In this document: piece after piece, positions 27,122 through 47,547 of the stretch
How positions within the stretch are numbered: position 1 is the first letter of the stretch
Layout of the letters: every line of letters starts with the position of its first letter
Source: Deltaproteobacteria bacterium
Lineage (GTDB): Bacteria > Desulfobacterota > Binatia > UBA1149 > SPBQ01
Reading direction: 5' to 3'
DNA length: 64,000 nt
Assembly: GCA_029262375.1 (NCBI GenBank)
Contig: JAJCZM010000049.1
Location: 3,992 to 67,991, forward strand
The notes under the pieces: model-generated
The model's database searches: none
Seen by the model: the letters and a program-made list of their open reading frames with translations, nothing else
What the model was told of the DNA's origin: nothing
Program-made: the position numbers and the translations under genes

Positions 27122-27186
27122 CATCGGAGAGCAGAGGGTAGATCAGGCGGATCATTGCGCGAGCGAGTAGCGGATCGCGCGTTCCG

Positions 27187-27281
27187 CATTTGTGCCCTGA
27201 GGCACAATTCCCGCCCAACCATGCCCAACAGTGCCTAACCCGATTCGCGAAAACGTTTACTTTTCGCGGCGCGTTCTTGGG
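27187..27281 (+). repeat. Island right-end element, copy a (palindrome TGTGCC-CTGA-GGCACA + ATTCCCGCCCAACCATGCCC + GCCTAAC + hairpin)
   Basis: Homologous by eye to 31818-31910 and 32716-32800. The internal hairpin is CGCGAAAA/TTTTCGCG. Confidence 0.7.
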
Positions 27282-30682: not shown

Positions 30683-31256
30683 GCACAATCCTGCAAGCTG
30701 AAATCTTATGCGGCCGCGTTCAGGGACCTGGGCCTATCGGCCCGTCACCATTGTCAAAGCTATGAGCAGCTTCAGTTGCTTTTCATCAACGCTAGCTCCG
30801 AGAAGTTCTTCCTCGGGAGAAGTCCCGTTTTGAACGAGAATGATCTGTGTGATGATGGTCTTCCAAGAACCGCCGAGGCCTGGTTTGATGGTGGTCTTTA
30901 CGACTCCATCCGTGACACCATCTTTCGTCTTGTAGGTGCTCTGTGTCCGTCGAGAACATCCACACGCACCACCACGGCGCAGACGGCATTATCATTCATC
31001 ACCCGTTGCTCACCGAAGCGTCAGATCCGACGCCCCACCACCGGCTACCAACTGGTACGTCGCCGACGAAACGATATCCAAGACGAACGTTTGTATTGAC
31101 GGACCTTATGTCAGATGGGGCGGAACAGCGGGGCCGATCGGGTGTCTTCCCTAACGCCGAGGCGCTTCTCAGGTAAGCGGCGTCTATCGATCCTCTGGCA
31201 GCGGGAATTGTGCCCAACGGCACAAATCGGGGCATTCCCGACCCGCGCGGTCGCGC

Positions 31257-31526
31257 TCAATCATCGTAGACCTCTCGCCGATGACCGATCTTCACGATCA
31301 GCACGGAGTTCGGCGGTTCGATCGTATAGACAACGCGGTAGTCACCGACGCGCAGTCGTCGCGCACCTTTGAAGCTGTAGCGCAGCGGCTTGCCGAACTC
31401 GATAGGACTCGAGCCGAGCTTTTGCTCGATCGCCCTGCGGACGCGTCGCTTGGCCGTGGTCGAGAGTTTCGGAATGTCGTCACGAACAACGCTTTCCAAG
31501 TACTCGATCCGGTACTTCAATCCCAA
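31257..31526 (-). CDS. relE: RelE/ParE-family type II toxin
   Basis: 89 aa. GKPLRYSFKGARRLRVGDYRVVYTIEPPNSVLIVKIGHRREVY matches the RelE/StbE pattern. Confidence 0.85.
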   Translation of the reverse strand: MGLKYRIEYLESVVRDDIPKLSTTAKRRVRRAIEQKLGSSPIEFGKPLRYSFKGARRLRVGDYRVVYTIEPPNSVLIVKIGHRREVYDD

Positions 31527-31738
31527 GCCTTGTCGTGAGAGATTCGCTTCTGCTTCTTAGCGATTCGGTCGTCGGCTATCCGTGAGAAGTGCAGGTCCTC
31601 TTGATACTCCAACGCCTCCTCGATCAAACTCAAACCGACGCCCGCTACAGATTGGTCGCGTTGGCCCGAGAGGCGCTCGAGCGCCTTGTAAACATCGTCA
31701 TCGACCGTGATGTTGATCCGCTTTTTCGTTGTCGGCAT
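31517..31738 (-). CDS. Ribbon-helix-helix antitoxin (RelB/CopG-like)
   Basis: 73 aa. The N-terminal KKRINITVDDDVYKALERLS is an RHH strand-helix. 10-nt overlap with the toxin gene. Confidence 0.75.
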   Translation of the reverse strand: MPTTKKRINITVDDDVYKALERLSGQRDQSVAGVGLSLIEEALEYQEDLHFSRIADDRIAKKQKRISHDKAWD

Positions 31739-31817
31739 CGCTCACTACCTCGATTGTGAGTGTAACACCAGTGCGACACCTCGGTCAAGCACATCCGCGG
31801 CCTGCCGCGTAGTTCAG

Positions 31818-31990
31818 CGAATTGTGCCCCGAGGCACAGTTCCCGCCCAACCATGCTCGACGGGGCCTAACCGGATTCGCGAAGACGCAGTCTCTTCGTG
31901 GCACGTTCTTCCGCGCGACGCGCTGAGATAACTACTAGGCGGTTGCTTCGCGTGACCAGTACTCTCGCCCTCGCCATGTCGGGCCCAGGA
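31818..31990 (+). repeat. Island right-end element, copy c (with ~75-bp insertion before the att-like copy)
   Basis: GAATTGTGCC-CCGA-GGCACAGTTC palindrome at 31820-31842, then CCGCCCAACCATGC, GCCTAAC and the hairpin CGAAGA/TCTTCG. Confidence 0.7.
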
Positions 31991-32716: not shown

Positions 32717-32800
32717 ATCTGTACCCAAAGGCACAATTCCCGCCCAACCATGCCCGATAGTCCCTAACTGAAATCGCGAAGACGAATACTCAGGCACCTC
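32716..32800 (+). repeat. Island right-end element, copy d (no att-like copy attached)
   Basis: TGTACC-CAAA-GGCACA, then ATTCCCGCCCAACCATGCCC, CCCTAAC and GCGAAGA...TCTTCGC. Starts at the higA stop and runs into the 3' end of the amidase gene. Confidence 0.6.
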
Positions 32801-35820: not shown

Positions 35821-38800
35821 TTAAAGCAGCGCCGGGCAGATGAGCGGCACGGGCGTACCAACCGCGACCCTCAATACGAGCAGTGCATCCGCCGATGTCG
35901 TCTCGCCATCGCCGCTCGGGTCGCAGACGGCTATGTCGACTTCGTTGCAGTCGGCCAGACCCACCGCAGCCCGTAACACTCCAAGTGCGTCGCTGGCTTC
36001 CACTATGCCATCGCCGTCATAGTCACCGCATAGCTCGCCGCAGGTCATAGAACAGACATCGCCATTATCGAGGTTTCCGTCGTCGCAGCGCTCTCCCTGT
36101 TCAACGATTCCGTTGCCACACTCGGTGGGAGCGCAAAGACACGTCACTTGGCAACGACCGGGACAAGCGTCGTCATCGTACCCGTCACATTCCTCACCTT
36201 GACTGCCGTCAGCAAAGTGATCACCACACATCGGCGCAACGAATGTCGCGTCGACCACATAGAAAGGAACGGCCTGGCCGTTGTAGCCCGCCACGACGAA
36301 CTCGTAGGTGCCTGGGGCAACGACATGACTCAGAAATGAGCAGTAGCCTGGCCCGCTGTCATCATCGTAGGCTACCTCGACACGCTCTCCAGTCTCATTG
36401 ACGAGATAGAGCGTCATGATCGTATCGTAACTGCAGTCACCTTCGCCATCGCTGGTCTCCAGGACGACGCGCACCTCCGTAGACGTCGTGAACCCGTAGA
36501 CGTCCGATTCTCCATCCTCGAAGCCGCCCTCGAAACGACCACCGTCACCGATTTCGATGGGCTCTACCAGGCAGGACGCATCGCAGCCATCGTCGACGGC
36601 AAGATTTCCGTCATCGCACTCTTCGCCAATCCCGACATCGACTCTCGCATCCCCGCACCCCGGATTTTCGAATTCGACATCGAGCAGGTAGGTATCAGAG
36701 CTGGCGACAGAGTAGGTTGAAACCACAAGCTCATACTCTCCTGGCGACAACGCACGGACGATCGTGCGACAGCCGATCTCATTGAAATCGCCCCTATCAA
36801 CGTACGTAACTTCGACGCCCGTAGTCACATCGAAAAGAATCATGTCGTGGTGATAGGGGACACCACATCCTCCGACATCGTTTGTCATCTCGGCGAGAAC
36901 TCGCGTGTTCTCGTCGACACTGAGAGTAAATATATCGAAGACGCGGGGGGCGGTGCCTGATTCGAAGATACCGCCTTCGGTGATGTCGATGGGTTCTACA
37001 TCGCAAGCTGCATCGCAGCCGTCTCCACCGGCCACGCCACCGTCATCGCACGTCTCCTCGGCGGCGAGATCGACCACGCCGTCGCCGCAGGCGAACGGCT
37101 CAAACACCACCTCGAAGACATAGGGCCCCAAGTCCTCAATGTCGTAGCTGCGAACCTCGATGACGTATTCGCCCGCCTCGAGTGCCTCCACAAGCAGGGC
37201 GCAGCCTAGGTCGTTTCTGGTGCCCGACGCCACGTATTTATCGGGCCGGCCGGACTCTGCCTCATACAAGGTCATCTCCCCGTCAAAGGGGAAGGGACAG
37301 CCTCCCGAACCATCTTGAACTTCAGCGCTTACGCGCAGCGACTCCTCCAAGGTGAATGTGAACAGATCGAACGAACGAGGCTCGAACCGGCCGTCGAAGC
37401 TCCCCCCGCCGGTGACGTCGGTCGCCTCTACTATGCAGGCGTCGTCACATCCATCGCCCGAGCTAAGATTGCCATCGTCGCATTCTTCCGCGATATCGAG
37501 ACCGACATCCACAATTCCATCCCCGCACTGAGGGTCCGAGAATGAAACGTCGAGGACGTAGGCTGGAAGCGTGTCGTAGAAACGCGAGTCAATGACGAGT
37601 TCGTACTCCCCCTGCTCTATCGTCATCACTAGCACCGGACAGCCGCCTGCGTTTATATCGCCCGACCTTACCCAGAACCCCGAGTCCGTAAACTCGTAAA
37701 GTCTCATCTCAATGTCGTAGGGATCCGGACAACCTTCGATACCGTCGCTCACAAGGGCCTCAATGCGCTGGAGGGAAGCGACTGTAAACGAGTAGCGGTC
37801 GAAGGACCCCGACGTCCGACCTCCCTCGAAGCGACCACCTCCGGAGATGTCCAAGCTCTCCACTTCGCACACAGGGCTACACCCGTCGCCGGCGTCGGTA
37901 TTGCCATCGTCGCACTCTTCGGACTCGGCAAGCGAGACGGATGCAGCGCTGCTCCCGACCCCGATGAGAGGGTTGGAATCGTCTGTTCCCGTTCCGCCAC
38001 TGCCGACGCCCACTGGATCACGTGTTCCGTCACCGCACGTCGGAACGGGCATCGAGGCTTCCAACACGTAGGAGCCGCCGGCACCGCCGTCTCTACCCGA
38101 TACGATGAGTTCGTAGCGGCCGGCATCAAGTTGCCGTACAACCGTCGAACAGCCCAACGCATTTGTCGTGCCGCCGGCAACGAACGACACGGAACCATCC
38201 GACTCTGTGAAAAACAGCATCGTCTCCGTGTCGTACGGAATCGGGCATCCATCAATTCCATCATTGATCTCAGCAGAGAATCGCCGCACGTCGCTCAACA
38301 AGAACGTGAATCGATTGAGAGCGCCGGGACCGATGGAGGCGGAAAACTGGCCGCCGCCGCTAATGTCGATGGGTTCGGCCCGGCAGAACGAGTCGCAACC
38401 ATCACCGTCCGTGAGGCCACTATCATCGCACTCTTCGAGCGCATCGACGATACCGTCGCCACAAAACGGATCCTCGAAGGTGACATCGAGCGTGTAGTAC
38501 GGTAGCGCTCGGTCGCGTGACTGGACGACGACCTCGTAGGTTCCTTCGGGCAATGATCGGCGCATGAGCGCGCACCGATCATCGTCTCTGTCGCTGTAGC
38601 CGATCCTGTTCCGCTGCCCGTCGGAACCGACAGCGAACAAAGTCAAGTCCTCCGTGTAGGAACAGGGAACAGGCGAAGAATCCAGACGCGCGTCGAGTCT
38701 AGCGGGACTCGAAAGCGTGAAGGCGAACAAGCCGAATGATCCGGCCTTGAAACCGCCGACGAATCGCCCACCATCGCCGATATCCACCGATTCTACGTTG

Positions 38801-39456
38801 CATTCGGCATCGCAGCCATCGAGATCCGCGCTGTTGCCATCATCGCATTCCTCTCCCGGACCGATATCTCCGTCGCCACACGTAACCAGACCTACGACGA
38901 TGTCGACTACGTACGCCTCGACGGCCCGACCACCAAAACCGCTGACGATGACTTCGTACGAACCGGACACCAAGGACACCTCGAGCGCCGAGCAGGGCCC
39001 CACTCCAGAGTCGTCATCGCGCTCGAGTGTATCGCGGTCCCCGTTGGGGGAGACGGAAAAGATAGCGATCGCCGTATCTGCCGGACACCCTCCCAGGCCG
39101 TCGCTGGTCTCGATCGCCACGCGCGACGCGCCGGTCAACGACAAACTGAACAGATCGAAGGAGCCGTCCGAGAATGCACCGTCGAAGCGACCGCCACCGC
39201 TGGCATCTACCGCCTCGACCATACACTCAGGATCACATCCGTCGCCTGCCACAAAGTTGCCGTCGTCGCACTGCTCAGAGGCATCCACGCTACCGTTGCC
39301 GCAACTCACAACGACCTGACGGTAGCCCGTCCCGTCGGTCGCGAGATCTTGATATCCCTGCTGGGTCCAGCCGACGACGAACGTCGAGCCAGGAGTGGGC
39401 AGCGCTAAGCAAAAGAGAACGAGGAAGGTCAGAAAGACCGAGACCGGCCGATACAT
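35821..39456 (-). CDS. Giant secreted modular protein: ~9 Cys-rich CDDGN-type repeats alternating with ~100-aa beta-sandwich-like modules, C-terminal dockerin-like pair
   Basis: The track ORF runs to 39684. A signal-peptide start MYRPVSVFLTFLVLFCLALPTPG lies at 39456. Repeats are of the form CGDG..D.GEECDDGN...GDGCD..C.VE (Myxococcus cysteine-rich repeat type). The tail is CGDYDGDGIVEASDALGVLRAAVG...CDPSGDGETTSADALLVLRVAVG. Confidence 0.85.
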   Translation of the reverse strand: MYRPVSVFLTFLVLFCLALPTPGSTFVVGWTQQGYQDLATDGTGYRQVVVSCGNGSVDASEQCDDGNFVAGDGCDPECMVEAVDASGGGRFDGAFSDGSFDLFSLSLTGASRVAIETSDGLGGCPADTAIAIFSVSPNGDRDTLERDDDSGVGPCSALEVSLVSGSYEVIVSGFGGRAVEAYVVDIVVGLVTCGDGDIGPGEECDDGNSADLDGCDAECNVESVDIGDGGRFVGGFKAGSFGLFAFTLSSPARLDARLDSSPVPCSYTEDLTLFAVGSDGQRNRIGYSDRDDDRCALMRRSLPEGTYEVVVQSRDRALPYYTLDVTFEDPFCGDGIVDALEECDDSGLTDGDGCDSFCRAEPIDISGGGQFSASIGPGALNRFTFLLSDVRRFSAEINDGIDGCPIPYDTETMLFFTESDGSVSFVAGGTTNALGCSTVVRQLDAGRYELIVSGRDGGAGGSYVLEASMPVPTCGDGTRDPVGVGSGGTGTDDSNPLIGVGSSAASVSLAESEECDDGNTDAGDGCSPVCEVESLDISGGGRFEGGRTSGSFDRYSFTVASLQRIEALVSDGIEGCPDPYDIEMRLYEFTDSGFWVRSGDINAGGCPVLVMTIEQGEYELVIDSRFYDTLPAYVLDVSFSDPQCGDGIVDVGLDIAEECDDGNLSSGDGCDDACIVEATDVTGGGSFDGRFEPRSFDLFTFTLEESLRVSAEVQDGSGGCPFPFDGEMTLYEAESGRPDKYVASGTRNDLGCALLVEALEAGEYVIEVRSYDIEDLGPYVFEVVFEPFACGDGVVDLAAEETCDDGGVAGGDGCDAACDVEPIDITEGGIFESGTAPRVFDIFTLSVDENTRVLAEMTNDVGGCGVPYHHDMILFDVTTGVEVTYVDRGDFNEIGCRTIVRALSPGEYELVVSTYSVASSDTYLLDVEFENPGCGDARVDVGIGEECDDGNLAVDDGCDASCLVEPIEIGDGGRFEGGFEDGESDVYGFTTSTEVRVVLETSDGEGDCSYDTIMTLYLVNETGERVEVAYDDDSGPGYCSFLSHVVAPGTYEFVVAGYNGQAVPFYVVDATFVAPMCGDHFADGSQGEECDGYDDDACPGRCQVTCLCAPTECGNGIVEQGERCDDGNLDNGDVCSMTCGELCGDYDGDGIVEASDALGVLRAAVGLADCNEVDIAVCDPSGDGETTSADALLVLRVAVGTPVPLICPALL

Positions 39457-39856
39457 GGCGATTCTCCTGCAGTCGCTCGGGGCGGCGACGCCAGCCCGCA
39501 ACAATACCGTAGCGCTTCCAACAAGGCCGCGAACGAACCCGACTGCCGGGGCAGTGTCCAGCCGATCAAGCGTTGTCACAAGCTTGGCGGGCCTGACGGC
39601 TGTGACCGCGGGCACGTCTCGGTAGAATCCAAGGCCCCATGTCTTGGAGAAGCACGACTCGAACCGCAAACCCGAGGACATCAAGTTGGCCGTAGCACGT
39701 TATGAAGCTGAGCAGATGCGCCGGTAACGTGAACCGGCGCATCCGCTCCGCATGTCGACGGCACCTTCCTTGACATACGCTCGGTGGAGCCGTTAGCGTC
39801 CCTTACTGCAGGCCTTAACGCGCTTATCCACGTAGAGGCGTAGAGGCTCAGTAGGT

Positions 39857-41695
39857 ATGCGCTCGGGTTGGCCTCTGGCCAACCCAGTTCGCGAATTGCT
39901 CACTCAAAGGGGATCCCCTGTGCTGCGCAAAACACTCAAGCACGCGACAACCACGCTTCTCTCCCTGTTGATCTTGCTACTTCCGACAACTCCGCTGCCC
40001 GCGGATCTCGTACCGTTGGGGCCGGCCGTGGACGCAGGCGGCCAGAGCGTTGGGGCCTCCAACCGAGGACTCTGCGCAGAAGCCGCCGGCGGTTACGTCA
40101 GCCTGTTGAGCGAGCAGTCCACAGGCCCTTGGGTGCAGCTGTTCGACGCCAGCGGCGCTGCAGTCGGCCTGCCGTTCGTCGCCTTTACCGCCAACGGTCC
40201 CGGCCGAGCGCGAGAGATCGCATGCTTTGATACAGGGGGCTTCATCGTAACGTGGACGGCCAATGGTTCATCCGCGTTTCACGAAATCTACTTCCAGCGC
40301 TTCACTGGCGCGGGCGCCAAGATCGGCCCAGAAACGTTGGTGGGAGACGGCGATCACGGTACTTCACAGCAGCACGCCTTGGCAGTGGCACCAGACGGTA
40401 GTTTCGCGCTGGCCTGGAACCAAAACGTGCCGTCTGGAAACGAAGTCGCGATACGGCGCTTCTCACCCGGCGGCATCCCCACGACCAGTGAAATCGGAAC
40501 AGAGATCCCCATGTATCTTAACGACGACATCACTGCCGCAATCGACCCGGTAAGCGACGCGCTCCTCATACGTTGCGAACGCGAGGCACGTGGATTCGAC
40601 GCTGCTGGAACACCGCTCGGGCCCACCGTTTTGGTTGACGTCGAGTATCCTGGTGGTCTCGATCTCTGTTTCACTCCGACTGGAGAAGCGTTGGGCGTTT
40701 CGATCCGAAACTATTACCCAGGCGTCAAGGGACAGCGATTGGACACGACCGGAAACCCGATCGGTACCGAGTTCGCCATCAACACCTACACCAGCGGCTC
40801 ACACGGTGCTCCCGTGATCGACTGCCTACCGACGGGGGACTTCATCGTCGCATGGGCGCAGGATGGAGACCGATTCGCTCAGGATGGCAGCGGTTCGGGC
40901 ACCTTCATGCGTCGTCTCGACGCTCTCGGGGCACCCCTCGGTCAGGAACGGGCGGTGAACAACTATAGGCGCTCAAACCAGGTTCCGGCAGGAATCTCGA
41001 TGCAGACGGATCGAATCTTCGTTTCCTACGACGGTGTCGTGCGCATGTTCTGCGAGGATACCGACCCAACATGCATATTCCGCTGCGCACCGGGTGGATC
41101 GGATACAGATACGGACGGGGACGGGCTGCCCGATGAATGTGATCCGTGCTTGAACTTGGCGGGAAGCGCAGAGATCACAGTCAAGCCAAAGATCGCGTTG
41201 CGTACGAGCAACGAGAACGACTCCGGCCTCACCAAGATGAGTTTCTCAGGCGACGTGACAATACCAGGCGGCTTCTCGAGCATCGACCCCGCATCGGCTC
41301 CCACACGCATCGTCGTTGGCTCCCAAGCGGGCGAGATTATCGACGTGGTCCTGCCCGGCGGACCACCTTGGTCTCTCAACGGACCCGGCACCTCGTGGAA
41401 ATACAAGGACAAGACGTTGGCGCCGATAGACGGCGTAACGAGCATCAAGATCACCGACCGTTCCGCCAAGGAAATCGACCAGGTCCGATTCAAGGTGAAG
41501 GCGAAGGGCAGCCGAAAGTTCTCGATCCACGTTCAGTACCCACTCATCCCGGCGGACGTTCCGCCTACCGCAACCATCGTGTTCGGCGACGATGCTGCCG
41601 GCGCTGCAGGCCGTTGCGGCGAGACAGACTTCAATGCCGGCGATTGCAAATTCTCCGACACGCTCGTCCGACGCCTAAGCTGTAAGAAAAAATAG
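39857..41695 (+). CDS. Secreted repeat protein (degenerate ~45-aa G.F.V.W...R.F repeats, TSP3-like DTDGDGLPDECDPC, K-rich C-terminal module)
   Basis: 612 aa. A hydrophobic signal segment LLSLLILLLPTTPLPA is present. An alternative GTG start near 39920 is preceded by AAGGGGA. Confidence 0.7.
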   Translation: MRSGWPLANPVRELLTQRGSPVLRKTLKHATTTLLSLLILLLPTTPLPADLVPLGPAVDAGGQSVGASNRGLCAEAAGGYVSLLSEQSTGPWVQLFDASGAAVGLPFVAFTANGPGRAREIACFDTGGFIVTWTANGSSAFHEIYFQRFTGAGAKIGPETLVGDGDHGTSQQHALAVAPDGSFALAWNQNVPSGNEVAIRRFSPGGIPTTSEIGTEIPMYLNDDITAAIDPVSDALLIRCEREARGFDAAGTPLGPTVLVDVEYPGGLDLCFTPTGEALGVSIRNYYPGVKGQRLDTTGNPIGTEFAINTYTSGSHGAPVIDCLPTGDFIVAWAQDGDRFAQDGSGSGTFMRRLDALGAPLGQERAVNNYRRSNQVPAGISMQTDRIFVSYDGVVRMFCEDTDPTCIFRCAPGGSDTDTDGDGLPDECDPCLNLAGSAEITVKPKIALRTSNENDSGLTKMSFSGDVTIPGGFSSIDPASAPTRIVVGSQAGEIIDVVLPGGPPWSLNGPGTSWKYKDKTLAPIDGVTSIKITDRSAKEIDQVRFKVKAKGSRKFSIHVQYPLIPADVPPTATIVFGDDAAGAAGRCGETDFNAGDCKFSDTLVRRLSCKKK

Positions 41696-41824: not shown

Positions 41825-41889
41825 GGCTTCGTGCGCAAGCGGCTTGCAGCACCGAAGTTGCCGAACAGGAACTCGCGTACGGGCTCGAC
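41825..41889 (+). pseudogene. Remnant of a higA 3' end
   Basis: GGCTTCGTGCGCAAGCGGCTTGCAGCACCGAAGTTGCCGAACAGGAACTCGCGTACGGGCTCGA matches 35596-35660 of higA-2 with only a handful of mismatches. No upstream higA/higB sequence remains. Confidence 0.7.
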
Positions 41890-42806
41890 TAATAAGAACG
41901 AAGCCGACGGGCCATGTCGCGGACAATTGCGTCGAGCAGCGAATCGTACTTCTTACGATCTCGTGACGTGCGCGAGTCATCCCGATAGACGGCAGAAGGG
42001 TCGCGACTTCGCTTCATCCGCTGTCGCTCGGCAACCGTTCCCCAAGGTTTGCAGTCGCCGGTCCGATCGCAGGCCCATTTGGTAGAGTAGCGGCCGCTGG
42101 GTGTTTCGCCACCGGCCAGCGGGACTTTCCAATCGTAGAACCAGATCGCCTCGCCCGTCTTCGTAGACATCGCTGTGGCGCTGAGGTTCACGCTGTAGAA
42201 GCTGCCGCGCATCCAGTGAGTGCGTTCATAATTATCTACAATCTCACCCGCCTCTCTGACGCGCCGTCGCCGCCCGTCCGCGATGGGCTTTCCGCGCGCC
42301 CCGAATTTATCCGACGAAAAGTATTTCCTGTCCCAATCCGTGACGTCGTCGGTGTCTGTCGTCATCTCGAGAGAGTTGATTACCAGCAACAAGTCCGCTC
42401 CCAAGTCTCCGGCGACCTCAGCAGAGCTACTCGCGCTGTCATGAACCCGATCCTTGATCGCCTTCGACGAGACGACTCGGTACCCCTCGTCCACCAATGC
42501 GCGCTCAACGTGCGACATCTCTCGCCCGCAGCTCGACAGCAGTCGTGCGGTCGTGTCGCCGGAGATGCTGGCCTCAGGGGTTCGGTAACTCGGCCCACTG
42601 GCGCAAGCTTCGGGCGCACTCACCGCAATGGTCTGCGCGCTTGAAATCGCCTCCCGAGACTTCTCCGACTCGGAGACTCGTGGAGAATTGTCGCTGCGTG
42701 TCGGGCCGAGTACGTAGCTCGACTCTATTTCGTAAAACTTCCAGCCCGAGCAACCGGCGATCAACACGATGCACGCACCAACGATTGTTCTCGATATTCC
42801 GTTCAT
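41889..42806 (-). CDS. Hypothetical lipoprotein
   Basis: 305 aa. MNGISRTIVGACIVLIAGCSG carries the lipobox LIAGC. I recognise no family. Confidence 0.65.
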   Translation of the reverse strand: MNGISRTIVGACIVLIAGCSGWKFYEIESSYVLGPTRSDNSPRVSESEKSREAISSAQTIAVSAPEACASGPSYRTPEASISGDTTARLLSSCGREMSHVERALVDEGYRVVSSKAIKDRVHDSASSSAEVAGDLGADLLLVINSLEMTTDTDDVTDWDRKYFSSDKFGARGKPIADGRRRRVREAGEIVDNYERTHWMRGSFYSVNLSATAMSTKTGEAIWFYDWKVPLAGGETPSGRYSTKWACDRTGDCKPWGTVAERQRMKRSRDPSAVYRDDSRTSRDRKKYDSLLDAIVRDMARRLRSY

Positions 42807-42884
42807 TGAGCCCCCAATACTCCCAGAGTCCTCTATGCGGCAGCACTACTCCTACGTCTCTGCCGTGCTCGTCAGCGTCTGTCG

Positions 42885-43622
42885 TCAGCCGCCGATATTG
42901 ACCGTGCAGGAGTCCGGCGCTCGCGGTGTCCCATCGGCGGGCAACGCACAATTGAGTCGGACCTTCTTGCTCATGTCCGCACCGATGCTCATCGCCAAGG
43001 TCCCATGGCCGTAGGTGCCTGACGTTCCTCGCCAACTGCAATGTACTCGAGTCGGTTCCGATCGGCATTCGGAGGGGGCATCCCCCATCAACGTGCTGAG
43101 TTCAAAGGCAGTACGTAAACCCGCGAGGTGCTGCTTGGCTTCGACGGCAAGTCTCTCCATTGCGCCCGAAAGCCGCCGCGTTGGGCGTCCGAAGCGCTCT
43201 GCCCCGCTCGCCTCGCGCCGGTAGTACGTTCGATTCGAGCGCTGCGAGTGTACGCTGCACGAGTCTTTGCCTCGCGGAGATTCATCGGGCGGGAGTTCAC
43301 ACACCAGATTCAAACGATCGCCGGTGCGCAACACCTTGGCCAGGGCGCGCCAACCGCTCTCCTTACTGCCGAGGTGCCACACGCAGATGCTCGCTCCGCG
43401 CGGAACCCCCTGGCAACGCGCCGGCGTGTTGCCGACAAACGCACTGATGTCTGTGAGCGTTCGGTGGGGTGCCAGAGTCTCGCGCACGGTCTCGATCGAT
43501 CCACGGTACTCTTCGGCCGGTGTCAGTCCGGCGAGCCCGTCGGCTCGGGCCGAAGACGCGACAAGGACACTGATCGAAGCAGCAACAACGATGGTGACGT
43601 AAACGTGAATCTTGGTCGGCAT
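42885..43622 (-). CDS. Secreted hypothetical protein with internal duplication
   Basis: 245 aa with a signal peptide (VYVTIVVAASISVLVASSARA). Contains two similar ~75-aa halves ending ...LNLVCELPPDESPRGKDSCSVH and ...VRLNCALPADGTPRAPDSCTVN. Confidence 0.6.
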   Translation of the reverse strand: MPTKIHVYVTIVVAASISVLVASSARADGLAGLTPAEEYRGSIETVRETLAPHRTLTDISAFVGNTPARCQGVPRGASICVWHLGSKESGWRALAKVLRTGDRLNLVCELPPDESPRGKDSCSVHSQRSNRTYYRREASGAERFGRPTRRLSGAMERLAVEAKQHLAGLRTAFELSTLMGDAPSECRSEPTRVHCSWRGTSGTYGHGTLAMSIGADMSKKVRLNCALPADGTPRAPDSCTVNIGG

Positions 43623-43964
43623 ATTGACGGTCTCCTCGATGTGAGAATCCTGATCGGAACTTCACGCTAGCGGTTGGTATGCCCTATCGCGCATGCCGAC
43701 CTGAAACCACTTGTGCCTCAAGGCACTGTTCCCGTCAGCGGTCATCCGCCACACCGTCTGCCTCTCCCGTTCTCGCAGAGTTATCGAGGCGTCGAAGCGC
43801 TGCCGGCCGAGCAGCGAGATGAGGGATCCCCCTCATACACGCTTCGCTCTCCTCGCGACTATTCTCGCCTCCCTCGTCTTGGTTCGAGACGAGTGAACTC
43901 GCTCACAGTTCGGCCGTGCGTCGCGGCTCGCTTCTGCTACGGTCGGGTCACGCGGAGGGACATC

Positions 43965-46310
43965 ATGGGGACATTCCACACGCAGGCGATCCGTTTCAAA
44001 AACATCTTTGTCGTTGTCGGTTTCGCTATATCGATTGCGACGCTGATGCCGCTTCATTTGGCTCACGCCACTCACGAAACGAGCGCCGGTGAGATAGAAG
44101 GCCGGCCGGCAGCTGTGTTTCGTCGCGTCTGTCTTGCAGGCACGAGCGCTGGTTCACTTTGCAAACAGGACTCGGAGTGTCCGGGATCCTCGTGCGCCGA
44201 GAAGAACATCTTCAACATCTCGGTCGCGTTCGAATATGACGCACCCACAGCAGACATCGACTCGATCAAAAAGCTGATTACAGACACGTCCGCGGTCCTG
44301 CTTGACGTCACCGACGGACAGGCGGAGATCGGCCAAGCGACCATCCACAATAACGCGAGCTCGACTACTCAGGCAGACCTGCGCGTTTATCCGAGCACCA
44401 ATGACAATTGGTGGTGGGCGATGTCCGGGCACTATCGCACCGGCGGAAGCATGAACGTGTCGATCAACTACGTGAGTTCGACCGTCAACCAGGGAGCTAT
44501 CCTGGCGCATGAGTTCGTTCACCTCGTGTTCGACGCACGCGACGAGTACGAAACACGACCCGGATGCGGTGCAACAACCGGGAACGCGACTTGTCCCGAT
44601 ACGACCACGATCACCGGTGGCGAGACCGTATGCTTGATGGACAGCAACGGCAGTGAGCTGTGCTGGGGACAGGGAGATTCGACGGACCTCACTGACATCT
44701 CGGGCGGGAACCACGACGCAACCAACGTGACAGAACAGTCCGAGTGCAGATCGGACCGGTCGTGTTGGGATCAGGTCGTGCACTCATGGCCGAGTACATT
44801 CCTCAAGCCGACCGGTGCACCGGAGGCAGGCACAAACGGGCGTAGCGTCGTTCCGCCCAAGTTCATCGAGACCGACGAAACCGTACGGGTCGTTCTCGTC
44901 TTGGACGAATCGGGAAGTATGAATCTCGAGTCTCCGTCGCGCATGGAGAGGCTGAAGGTAGCCGCGAAAGACTTCGTGGCGTTGGCGGAGGACGATACCG
45001 AAGTCGGAATAGTCTCGTATTCAACAGACGCTCTAGGCACGAGCGGGCGCGTCAACGTCCCGATCGCTGCACTCACGTCCAATCGCGCAACGTGGACGAA
45101 CGCGATCGATGGAATGTCTCCCGACGACATGACGAACATCGGGGACGGGCTGCGCGAAGCAAAACAGATGATCGTTGACGCCGGTGGTGTGACCGGCAGC
45201 ACTTTCGTGGTGCTGATGACTGACGGCCTCAACAACCAGCCGCCTCCACAGTCCAACGCCGATTCCGACCTCCAGAGCGCGATCGACGACCTACTCGCTT
45301 CGAGTATTCCTGTTTACGTTACTTGTACTGGAGGCGATCTCGGCGTGCAGTCACAGTGCTCCGAGATAGCGACCGGGACTGGCGGCTTTTACGTGGACTC
45401 CGCCGACGCCGCGAGATTGCCGGAAGCGTTTGTCGGTTTTCACGAGCGCGTAGCGGGAAGAGAAGGGATCAGCTCGACAGAGGGCGTGTTCTCAAAAGCA
45501 TCGTCACTCGGAACTACGACCTTCTACGTCGACGAGGGCTCTGAGTTGGCGACGTTCACGCTGGTCTGGTCGGATCCGTCGACGAGCGCGGCGATGTTCG
45601 CAATCGACCCCGACGGCAACAGTTACCGCAGCCTCAGCATGCCGCAGGGACGCTACGTGCGCGTGCAAACACCAAAACCCGGCGACTGGACTCTGCGGAT
45701 CGATCCCAGCGGTGTGTCGGACAGCCCTTTCGTTGCGCGGGCATTTACCGAGAATCGAGTAAATAGCCTCCACGCTGCGGTACGTTACGCGTCCGTCTTG
45801 CCCGGCGGCGAGATCTACATTTACGGCTTTCCCAGAAGCCACCGTGGGGCGGTGACCCACGATAGTGCGACCCTCGATGCTACGATCACACGCCCGGACG
45901 GTACGAAAGAAATGGTCGAGCTGCACGACCGCGGGCGAGATGCGACCGGCCATGGCGACGATATTCCAGCCGACGGCGTGTTCACTGGGATCTATCGAAA
46001 CGCCTCGCTGAAGGGTGCCTACACGATCCTCGTTAGCGCCGACGTTAACGAATGGGAGCAGGGACACGACGCGCACGAACGCGACCCAGACTACAAGAGT
46101 CCCCGATTTACGCGCGAGATTCGCCTATCGGCCGCAGTTGGGGACCCCGATGACGTCGTGGTCCGACCGGAAGATCGGCCGGACGACAAGCCGACGCCGA
46201 CCGAGTTCGAGAAGTGGGTCCGATGCGTGCTCATCGCGATCGTAGTGCTGCTGATTCTGATTCTGCTGATGACCTGGTTCTGTTGCTGTGGCAGGAGGGC
46301 GCGGGGTTGA
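43965..46310 (+). CDS. CLCA-like zinc metalloprotease + von Willebrand A domain protein with C-terminal TM anchor
   Basis: The track ORF starts at 43674. The ATG at 43965 follows GGAGGGA and gives a signal/TM start. HEFVHLVFDARDEYE has the same HExxH-x7-E spacing as HEWAHLRWGVFDEY of CLCA proteins. The VWA MIDAS motif is VLVLDESGSM. The tail is CVLIAIVVLLILILLMTWFCCCGRRARG. Confidence 0.75.
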   Translation: MGTFHTQAIRFKNIFVVVGFAISIATLMPLHLAHATHETSAGEIEGRPAAVFRRVCLAGTSAGSLCKQDSECPGSSCAEKNIFNISVAFEYDAPTADIDSIKKLITDTSAVLLDVTDGQAEIGQATIHNNASSTTQADLRVYPSTNDNWWWAMSGHYRTGGSMNVSINYVSSTVNQGAILAHEFVHLVFDARDEYETRPGCGATTGNATCPDTTTITGGETVCLMDSNGSELCWGQGDSTDLTDISGGNHDATNVTEQSECRSDRSCWDQVVHSWPSTFLKPTGAPEAGTNGRSVVPPKFIETDETVRVVLVLDESGSMNLESPSRMERLKVAAKDFVALAEDDTEVGIVSYSTDALGTSGRVNVPIAALTSNRATWTNAIDGMSPDDMTNIGDGLREAKQMIVDAGGVTGSTFVVLMTDGLNNQPPPQSNADSDLQSAIDDLLASSIPVYVTCTGGDLGVQSQCSEIATGTGGFYVDSADAARLPEAFVGFHERVAGREGISSTEGVFSKASSLGTTTFYVDEGSELATFTLVWSDPSTSAAMFAIDPDGNSYRSLSMPQGRYVRVQTPKPGDWTLRIDPSGVSDSPFVARAFTENRVNSLHAAVRYASVLPGGEIYIYGFPRSHRGAVTHDSATLDATITRPDGTKEMVELHDRGRDATGHGDDIPADGVFTGIYRNASLKGAYTILVSADVNEWEQGHDAHERDPDYKSPRFTREIRLSAAVGDPDDVVVRPEDRPDDKPTPTEFEKWVRCVLIAIVVLLILILLMTWFCCCGRRARG

Positions 46311-46389: not shown

Positions 46390-47547
46390 CTACTGATCCG
46401 CGCAAAGCGCCCCGTCGCAGAAGTCGGTCAGGCAATCGGCGTTTACCGTACAAGCCGTGGGGGCCTGGCAGCGGTACAGCAGCCCGCCCGCGTTTAGGTC
46501 GTAGTTGCACGTCAGCGACCCGCAACAGGTTCGCGCAACGCCGGCGCCAAAGGCATCGCCGCAGAAAGTGCCCTCGCCGCCGCAACAGGTGAAGTCGGGC
46601 AAGCAGGTGTCACCTTCTTCGCACTCAAACGGTTCGGCGCATGAGTTCGAGATGCACTGGAGGTTGCCGCCGAATAATCCACCCGGCATCGAGATCACGA
46701 TTGAGGGTACGCAGCAGGGCAGTCCAGGGATAGAAGGGCTGAACTGGCTGCAGCACAGACACTCGTTGCCGGCCTCGAGCGTGCCACAGCCCACGAACGG
46801 ATCTTGATGGATAGGGTTCCCGGAGAGATCGCAGGAGGACGGCCCGTCGCATTCTTCGCTCCCCGAGACGACCCCGTCGCCGCAGACGGCCGGCGAGATG
46901 ACGCCGACGATACTCTCTTCGTCACAATCGGCGAAAGCCGGGATGGGCGCGTCGGCGCCCGAGAAGCTACCGGCTTGATCTTTGCTGATGCTCGCACCGG
47001 TGAAGGCTGCGCAAAGGCGTTCGGCTTCGCCTGCTACGTCCCAGCGCCACCGTATCGCGACACCTCCCGTGGGTGCGTCGAGCGGAAGGACAGCATCCTT
47101 CAGTTTGATCTTCAAGCCACGCCCCTGTCGCCACAGAACCAACTTGACGTCGGACTGTTCATCCGGCGCGCCCTTGTGGCGAAACCTGTGCTTGAACTTG
47201 CCGCCGCTGCCAGAGAACTCCAGATATGGATCAGAAGAACCACCCGCGGAGGGATCATCCTTTCGCAACGGCGCGACACCACCGTTCGGTCCCGCCAGCG
47301 AGAACACGCTAATTCCGACGTCGAACGCTGAGAGCGCAGACGAAGGCGGTGTCGGGAACGGGATGTTCACATCCTTCGCAATGAACAGCAGGCTCGATTT
47401 ACCCGTTGCCGAGCGCTTCAGGCGAATCTTCTTGCCGGCGATCACGTGGTCGGCTGCGGTCGTCGTCGACGCCGACAAAAACGTCCCACAAACCGCGAAA
47501 ATCGCGACCATCATCACTCCCCTGAGGTCGGTATGACTTGCAATCAT
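46390..47547 (-). CDS. Secreted protein: K-rich N-terminal module + Cys-rich C-terminal half
   Basis: 385 aa with a signal peptide (VMMVAIFAVCGTFLSASTTTA). Has one CGDGVVSGSEECDG repeat followed by a dense Cys region. Confidence 0.65.
   Translation of the reverse strand: MIASHTDLRGVMMVAIFAVCGTFLSASTTTAADHVIAGKKIRLKRSATGKSSLLFIAKDVNIPFPTPPSSALSAFDVGISVFSLAGPNGGVAPLRKDDPSAGGSSDPYLEFSGSGGKFKHRFRHKGAPDEQSDVKLVLWRQGRGLKIKLKDAVLPLDAPTGGVAIRWRWDVAGEAERLCAAFTGASISKDQAGSFSGADAPIPAFADCDEESIVGVISPAVCGDGVVSGSEECDGPSSCDLSGNPIHQDPFVGCGTLEAGNECLCCSQFSPSIPGLPCCVPSIVISMPGGLFGGNLQCISNSCAEPFECEEGDTCLPDFTCCGGEGTFCGDAFGAGVARTCCGSLTCNYDLNAGGLLYRCQAPTACTVNADCLTDFCDGALCADQ

Follow-up and report, generated by a model that had tools for sequence, protein, structure and literature searches.

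Is the gene at positions 43,965 to 46,310 of this stretch of DNA a bacterial counterpart of the animal CLCA proteins and, if it is, what would its product do and in which compartment? The window that we analysed is the whole stretch of 64,000 nucleotides (nt) from contig JAJCZM010000049.1 of a Deltaproteobacteria bacterium assembled from a biofilm metagenome, and the gene and all of its parts described below lie on the plus strand. The sequence-only reading had proposed a CLCA-like protein in which a zinc site with CLCA spacing is followed by a Cys-containing region, a von Willebrand factor A (VWA) domain with an intact metal-ion-dependent adhesion site (MIDAS), a beta-rich region and a C-terminal membrane anchor. 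The motifs that it quoted, HEFVHLVFDARDEYE, VLVLDESGSM and a transmembrane (TM) helix followed by CCCGRRARG, are all present, and as judged from the aligned homologues their conservation far exceeds chance. Profile alignments show this protein to be homologous to CLCA1 across the metallohydrolase domain, the Cys-rich subdomain, the VWA domain, the BSR domain and the inhibitory domain. We consider it probable that the protein is a single-pass, C-terminally anchored extracytoplasmic protein and a divergent bacterial CLCA ('CLCAsin', MEROPS M87-type) member of the metzincin superfamily.

We compared the subfamily to which the protein belongs with animal CLCA at the level of profiles. Mammalian CLCA1 sequences were fetched with a probe that scores 464 bits on PF08434, the CLCA N-terminal model, and 13 of them were aligned; database sequences were used in every comparison, and the domains of CLCA1 are defined as in a cryo-electron microscopy (cryo-EM) preprint on human CLCA1 (bioRxiv 10.1101/2025.10.18.683246). 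When the subfamily profile (A1) was aligned with these sequences by hhalign, we found a match with a probability of 99.0% and an E-value of 4e-18 over 566 collinear columns, which places residues 83-692 of this protein on CLCA1 33-677, a span that starts with the catalytic domain and runs through the second beta domain. The two active sites are superposed (LAHEFVHLVFDARDEYE on FVHEWAHLRWGVFDEYN, with HEFVHL on HEWAHL and DEY on DEY), and the claimed CLCA spacing of the zinc site holds, as HExxH-x6-DEY aligns on CLCA1 at identical spacing. The claimed domain order also agrees with the collinear alignment, and it is the order of animal CLCA1-4 ('CLCAsins'; PF08434 plus VWA): metallohydrolase, Cys-rich, VWA, BSR, inhibitory. 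The CLCA_N-like metzincin metallohydrolase domain, including its Cys-rich C-terminal subdomain, occupies 44211-44879, as delimited by hhalign against CLCA1 and against a second bacterial group described below and by an AlphaFold2 (AF2) model; it is followed by the VWA domain (44880-45455; PF00092, E 1.5e-12). A first beta-sandwich (45456-45758), with beta strands in the AF2 model, is collinear with CLCA1 residues ~480-585 and is the counterpart of the BSR domain, and a second beta-sandwich (45759-46145), over which the alignment extends to CLCA1 residue 677, is the counterpart of the inhibitory domain. The mammalian CLCA model TIGR00868 gives a sub-threshold match to this protein (E 4.8e-13; residues 249-694 on model positions 254-682) that reaches beyond the VWA domain on both flanks. 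As in the animal proteins, there is no classical metzincin-type N-terminal pro-domain.

To describe the individual sites, we counted residue conservation over the best 120 of more than 280 homologues; nearly all of these 120 are full length. The zinc motif HEFVHLVFDARDEYE spans 44508-44552 (residues 182-196), and within it H182, E183, H186, D193, E194 and Y195 are each found in 120/120 homologues. These positions correspond to H156, E157, H160, D167, E168 and Y169 of CLCA1, and D190 corresponds to G164; Asp is found at this position in 119 homologues and Gly in one. By this alignment H182, H186 and D193 would hold the catalytic zinc, and E183 would be the general base. In the CLCA1 structure the catalytic zinc is held by H156, H160 and D167, with Y169 nearby and M238 as the Met-turn, and a second zinc is bound by C187, C250 and H255 (bioRxiv 10.1101/2025.10.18.683246). 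By analogy with the M64 peptidases, E168 of CLCA1 may be read as the fourth ligand of that second zinc. On the bacterial side, H255 maps to H250 and EFC250 to ELC233 (ELC...NHD on EFC..NHN), and E194, C210, C233 and H250 are candidate counterparts of the CLCA1 second-zinc ligands, predicted from two alignments of unequal agreement. E194, C210 (or C201), C233 and H250 are present in all 120 homologues. So is M225, which is also nearly invariant in the second bacterial group and which we regard as a candidate Met-turn; its alignment with M238 is ambiguous. The MIDAS of the VWA domain begins with VLVLDESGSM (residues 310-319) and is complete, with D314, S316, S318 and T390 each conserved in 120/120 homologues and D420 in 119/120. 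The calcium site of the CLCA1 inhibitory domain is formed by D644, D650 and D655 (bioRxiv 10.1101/2025.10.18.683246). In the second beta-sandwich of this protein, a motif that resembles that site lies at residues 651-677, and its Asp cluster (D655, D665, D666 and D670) is invariant in the 120 homologues. The aligned counterparts of the catalytic-zinc, MIDAS and inhibitory calcium-site residues of animal CLCA are all conserved, as are the candidate counterparts of its second-zinc ligands.

The cysteines bear on the compartment in which the protein would fold. C223 (codon 44631-44633) and C267 (codon 44763-44765) are both present in 83 homologues, both absent in 35 and discordant in 2, and 8/9 members sampled from the wider bacterial group show the paired pattern as well. 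Such pairing suggests that C223 and C267 form a disulfide, a dispensable one, at the base of a predicted helix (residues 267-274) that follows the active site. Because these two residues covary and several other Cys are invariant, an oxidising, extracytoplasmic compartment is indicated.

How does a subfamily this divergent connect to CLCA1? A profile search of 1.84 billion cluster representatives returned 1916 proteins at E<=1e-10, of which 220 reached E<=1e-30. Below the subfamily we found a large second group, A4, whose members are 650-1400 amino acids long and match profile positions ~84-693. The A4 consensus, HEFxHxxYGxxDEY, is the published CLCA motif. A4 aligns with CLCA1 at E 1.6e-49 in hhalign and the N-terminal profile of our subfamily aligns with A4 at E 4e-35; because A4 matches both, it links the subfamily to CLCA1. 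TIGR00868 matches 40/40 sampled A4 members (best 5e-40), and PF08434 matches 9/40 (best 3e-6), one of them above the gathering score (P0198, 27.3 versus 25.6 bits). The A4 proteins are annotated merely as 'VWA domain-containing protein'. The choice-of-anchor X motif is found in 36/40 of them, and their C-termini vary (JDVT-CTERM, type IX secretion system (T9SS) tails, RTX, PKD, DUF11); the wider CLCA-core bacterial group as a whole bears many kinds of C-terminal anchor. The choice-of-anchor X model NF041940 matches our protein at residues 663-692 with 21 bits (E 2e-4), below its 25-bit cutoff, so that by this match the protein is a sub-threshold relative of the choice-of-anchor X proteins.

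The predicted structure is consistent with the assignment. When the N-terminal 270 amino acids were folded separately with AF2, the model had a predicted local distance difference test (pLDDT) score of 85 and a predicted TM-score (pTM) of 0.87, and among the 50 listed Foldseek matches to this model there were only zinc metalloproteases, including matrix metalloproteases, the M64 structures 3p1v, 4df9 and 9qdi, ADAMTS4 and myroilysin. A Foldseek search with the whole model was dominated by the VWA domain; in the fold search this domain matched the VWA domain of CLCA1 (6pyx) with a TM-score of 0.83 and 24% identity, the highest identity of any VWA domain. The crystal structure of the CLCA1 VWA domain was also the second-best match by sequence in the PDB, where single-sequence and profile searches returned VWA domains only; there was no full-length CLCA chain in the copy searched.

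Several observations weigh against the CLCA assignment or against the protease function that goes with it. The proposed check with CLCA profiles came out divided: TIGR00868 and the profile comparisons support the relationship, but PF08434 gives no match to this protein at E<=10, with weak matches in 4/35 subfamily members (best E 0.007), and a direct Pfam scan of the protein reports VWA alone. Compared directly, the catalytic domain resembles metazoan CLCA_N only in the active-site helix and in scattered motifs, and its Foldseek matches are weak (E ~2e-3 or worse, TM-score ~0.3). The counterpart of CLCA1 C187 is ambiguous, being C201 in one alignment and C210 in the other. Where CLCA has HExxHxxxGxxDEY, this protein has Asp in place of the Gly, and an Asp instead of the Gly of the Gly-turn could alter the zinc geometry. 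The beta6-beta7 loop of the second beta-sandwich (residues 693-714, before a last strand at 715-725) is 22 residues long as compared to 47 in CLCA1 and is unlike the CLCA cleavage site, the FnIII-like domain of CLCA is absent, and the gene context suggests no substrate.

An alternative is that the likeness to CLCA is convergent or limited to single domains, and that a bacterial zincin of the M64/igalysin or another type has been joined by chance to a generic VWA domain. M64 igalysins (IgA peptidase; 3p1v, 4df9) share the DEY motif and, on the prediction made here, the metzincin fold and second zinc site. Both of these structures are among the fold matches, the C-x-M pattern of this protein (C223-L-M225) resembles the igalysin Met-turn, and PF09471, the M64 model, gives weak matches to 2/35 subfamily members (E 0.16 or worse), in addition to the missing PF08434 match. 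However, PF09471 does not match this protein, the behaviour of C223 is that of a disulfide partner of C267 and not that of an obligatory metal ligand, and M64 proteins lack the VWA, BSR and inhibitory-domain module that this protein has. One profile alignment, collinear throughout, takes in all five domains that make up the N-terminal product of CLCA1 (E 4e-18), the TIGR00868 match extends past the VWA domain on both sides, and the CLCA1-specific EFC...NH pattern and inhibitory-domain calcium motif are conserved. Matches to M64 are also far weaker than those to CLCA, in the subfamily as in A4, so the outcome that would have spoken for an unrelated zincin family, a better match there, was not borne out. 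We therefore regard convergence as very improbable.

That prokaryotes have CLCA-like sequences, as the sequence-only reading stated, is established: bacterial CLCA homologues with a patchy distribution were published in 2013 (Lenart et al., PMC3650047). Our subfamily shares with these homologues and with A4 the core module, the patchiness across phyla, the lack of a conserved neighbourhood and the export. In contrast, the published homologues and A4 retain the Gly (HEFxHxxYGxxDEY) and some of them are recognised by PF08434, while this protein has Asp and is not recognised; they end in varied sorting or surface domains, while the subfamily ends in a plain TM helix; and the subfamily is far more uniform, with at least 50% identity across phyla. 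The Asp in HExxHxxxD is shared with CLCA_X (Lenart et al., 2013). However, CLCA_X proteins have neither the DEY motif nor the VWA/BSR architecture and are mostly phage- or plasmid-borne, whereas this protein has DEY and VWA and no plasmid match. As compared to CLCA, this protein also has a 12-residue insert between the EFC-like Cys (ELC) and the His of NH(D), and the subfamily has an extra N-terminal module of 45 residues with four Cys for which CLCA1 and A4 have no counterpart (alignments start at about residue 83). What is new here, then, is an unannotated subfamily that escapes PF08434. It is now placed among the CLCA metzincins, and individual residues are predicted for each of the two zinc sites, for the MIDAS and for the calcium site.

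Is the protein exported, and how is it held? The gene runs from an ATG at 43965 to a stop codon that ends at 46310 and encodes 781 amino acids, and a Shine-Dalgarno-like GGAGGG (43954-43959), read from the sequence, lies 5 nt upstream of the ATG. We take this ATG to be the correct start because the aligned Met is the first residue of all homologues and a hydrophobic signal sequence comes next; the longer frame from TTG 43674 in the mechanical list of open reading frames (ORFs) is not supported. Scans for a promoter and a terminator gave nothing informative, and a check for RNA evidence turned up the gene in DNA runs from the biofilm metagenome alone. The predicted signal peptide comprises residues 1-35 (43965-44069), with a modelled hydrophobic helix at residues 4-27 and a probable cleavage site between LHLAHA and THE; at this position the N-termini of the homologues are variable and hydrophobic. 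The subfamily-specific extension (GEIExRP...RRxC...C...CPGSxC; 44070-44210) follows, with C56, C66, C72 and C77 present in 120/120 homologues and E45 in 119/120.

At the other end, the second beta-sandwich is followed by an acidic linker of 23 residues (46146-46214) with a conserved PED (P735, E736, D737) and low pLDDT at residues 737-745, a TM helix at about residues 751-772 (46215-46280; modelled helix 747-780) and a cytoplasmic tail of nine residues, CCCGRRARG, plus the stop codon (46281-46310). A TM helix with basic residues ends ~109/120 homologues. In two others, both from other metagenomes (P0103 and P0111), the helix is replaced by an OmpA-like eight-strand outer-membrane barrel (PF13505), and the two kinds of anchor are alike predicted to place the ectodomain in the periplasm. 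The anchor had been noted as a contrast to secreted CLCAs; it is present, but such an anchor also occurs within CLCA, as human CLCA2, with which this protein shares a C-terminal TM anchor, is a type I membrane protein that is cleaved at residue 708 (PMC10669480).

An alternative that we consider unlikely is that helix, Cys and basic tail together are a sorting signal of the choice-of-anchor type that can be cleaved off, and that a dedicated enzyme removes or modifies this signal and passes the protein to the outer membrane or cell surface. Helix-plus-basic tails are typical of such signals, at least one Cys occurs within the last 18 residues in 105/120 homologues, and A4, with its choice-of-anchor X motif in 36/40 members, carries interchangeable C-terminal sorting signals (JDVT-CTERM, T9SS, RTX). 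However, the Cys is not invariant (CC in 70/120 homologues and a lone C in 35/120, within the same 18 residues), there is no conserved processing enzyme among the neighbours, and the PED lies at a variable distance of 7-20 residues from the helix and is retained in the barrel-anchored variants. A sorting system normally has more than one substrate, yet a tail of this kind is found on no other ORF of the genome, and on this ground a sorting signal shared within the genome was rejected. None of the NCBIfam C-terminal sorting models matches the tail. Because the tail is unique in the genome and no sorting model matches it, a plain membrane anchor is likelier than a processed sorting signal.

In our reading, the protein is a metzincin-type protease that is tethered to the membrane, works outside the cytoplasm and has a ligand-binding domain with a MIDAS. 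Once the protein has been exported by Sec and has lost its signal peptide, the C-terminal helix would keep the ectodomain attached to the cytoplasmic membrane, with the short basic CC tail inside the cell and, in a diderm, the ectodomain facing the periplasm. As a zinc endopeptidase it would there cleave a protein or glycoprotein outside the cytoplasm, and the MIDAS of the VWA domain would bind either this substrate or a ligand that regulates the enzyme. The beta6-beta7 loop of CLCA1 (G680-C727) contains the self-cleavage site at G694/A695 and blocks the active site (bioRxiv 10.1101/2025.10.18.683246). By analogy, the active site of this protein may be blocked by the corresponding loop of its last beta-sandwich, and the loop may be cut.

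The protein could instead serve mainly in adhesion or as a scaffold, with the MIDAS binding a partner and the zincin domain retained for its structure or for a single round of self-processing, so that the protein would be its own sole substrate; we regard this as quite unlikely. The MIDAS is perfectly conserved, tethering limits the reach of the ectodomain, the cleavage best documented for CLCA1 is its own, and substitutions in the active site are found in many CLCAs (PMC3650047). In contrast, pseudo-enzymes usually drift, while here the catalytic residues are invariant across phyla, together with the Met and the residues lining the site, and CLCA1 has been reported to cleave MUC2. If the membrane-tethered protease is what the gene encodes, it is possibly a simpler system in which to study how VWA and inhibitory domains control a CLCA-type protease, as it has neither the FnIII-like domain nor the mucin-like tail of CLCA. 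Nor do bacterial proteins normally carry glycosylation like that of CLCA1.

To see where the subfamily occurs, we examined the homologues recovered by a word-indexed search. The best 120 are 52-73% identical to this protein and mostly ~770-820 amino acids long, with a few reaching 1260, and they are annotated only as 'VWA domain-containing' or 'hypothetical'. Carriers among named genomes belong to the Gamma-, Alpha- and Betaproteobacteria, Acidobacteriota, Verrucomicrobiota, Thermodesulfobacteriota, Bacteroidales, Schekmanbacteria, Chloroflexia and Gemmatimonadota, and one cultured isolate, Roseovarius sp. S1116L3, has an orthologue (locus L032). The gene had been placed in an accessory region, and this agrees with the lack of a full-length copy in the 30 related genomes searched. 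Across 47 loci there was no conserved neighbourhood, except for synteny among closely related Verrucomicrobiota, and no plasmid counterpart was found at E<=1e-10. It is an accessory gene that stands alone and has a patchy distribution. In a quick maximum-likelihood tree the phyla are mixed, with 10 label changes against a minimum of 5, and a Bacteroidales bin forms a well-supported pair with a proteobacterial bin; judging from this tree, horizontal transfer appears to have carried the gene from phylum to phylum.

The bacterial relatives also bear on the history of CLCA. The 2013 study favoured transfer from an animal to a bacterium and argued from the paucity of these proteins in prokaryotes (PMC3650047). 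The number and variety of relatives found here weaken that argument. A tentative possibility, which we hold to be rather unlikely, is that the CLCA module is an old and diverse bacterial invention from which the animal CLCAs derive, and that the subfamily represents a minimal, self-inhibited, MIDAS-gated periplasmic protease whose short inhibitory loop is released on binding. If the first part is true, the published direction of transfer is reversed; if the second is true, the subfamily would offer a workable model in bacteria of how CLCA1 becomes active.

Around the CLCA-like gene we observed further exported Cys-rich proteins, at 35821-39684 (minus strand), 39857-41695 (plus strand), 41889-43622 (minus strand) and 46390-47547 (minus strand). 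One exported neighbour carries DUF4215 Myxococcus-type repeats, a PPC domain and a dockerin, and four others have no Pfam match. These neighbours are not conserved beside CLCA-like homologues elsewhere.

A last question is whether the palindrome upstream of the gene belongs to it. The palindrome TGTGCC-N4-GGCAC is present as described, at 43712-43727 between the divergent genes (TGTGCCTCAAGGCAC at 43712-43726), and 253 nt separate it from the ATG downstream, but a functional link to the gene found no support. Exact sites of the form TTGTGCC-N4-GGCAC number four in the 4.8-Mb genome, at 27191-27206, 31209-31224, 31823-31838 and 43712-43727; as all four fall within the window, a stray copy of a genome-wide motif was rejected. 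The palindrome heads a repeat of 75-100 nt (81-82% identical) at 27181-27278, 31812-31910 and 32717-32790, one of which holds a degenerate copy, and the site at 43712 shares just the 24-nt core with these island-end repeats. At 90-165 nt downstream of the repeats at 27181-27278 and 31812-31910 there are copies of the tRNA-Leu 3' end, which delimit the island segments. The palindrome was not taken as part of the tRNA-Leu attachment (att) repeat, which is a different sequence 90-165 nt downstream, and a sigma-54 promoter was dropped by eye, as the -12 GC is missing in two of the four copies. An Rfam scan found only the tRNA and gave no match to the repeats. The copies at 31209 and 31823 flank a toxin-antitoxin-like cassette of two small overlapping ORFs of 89 and 73 amino acids (31257-31738, minus strand).

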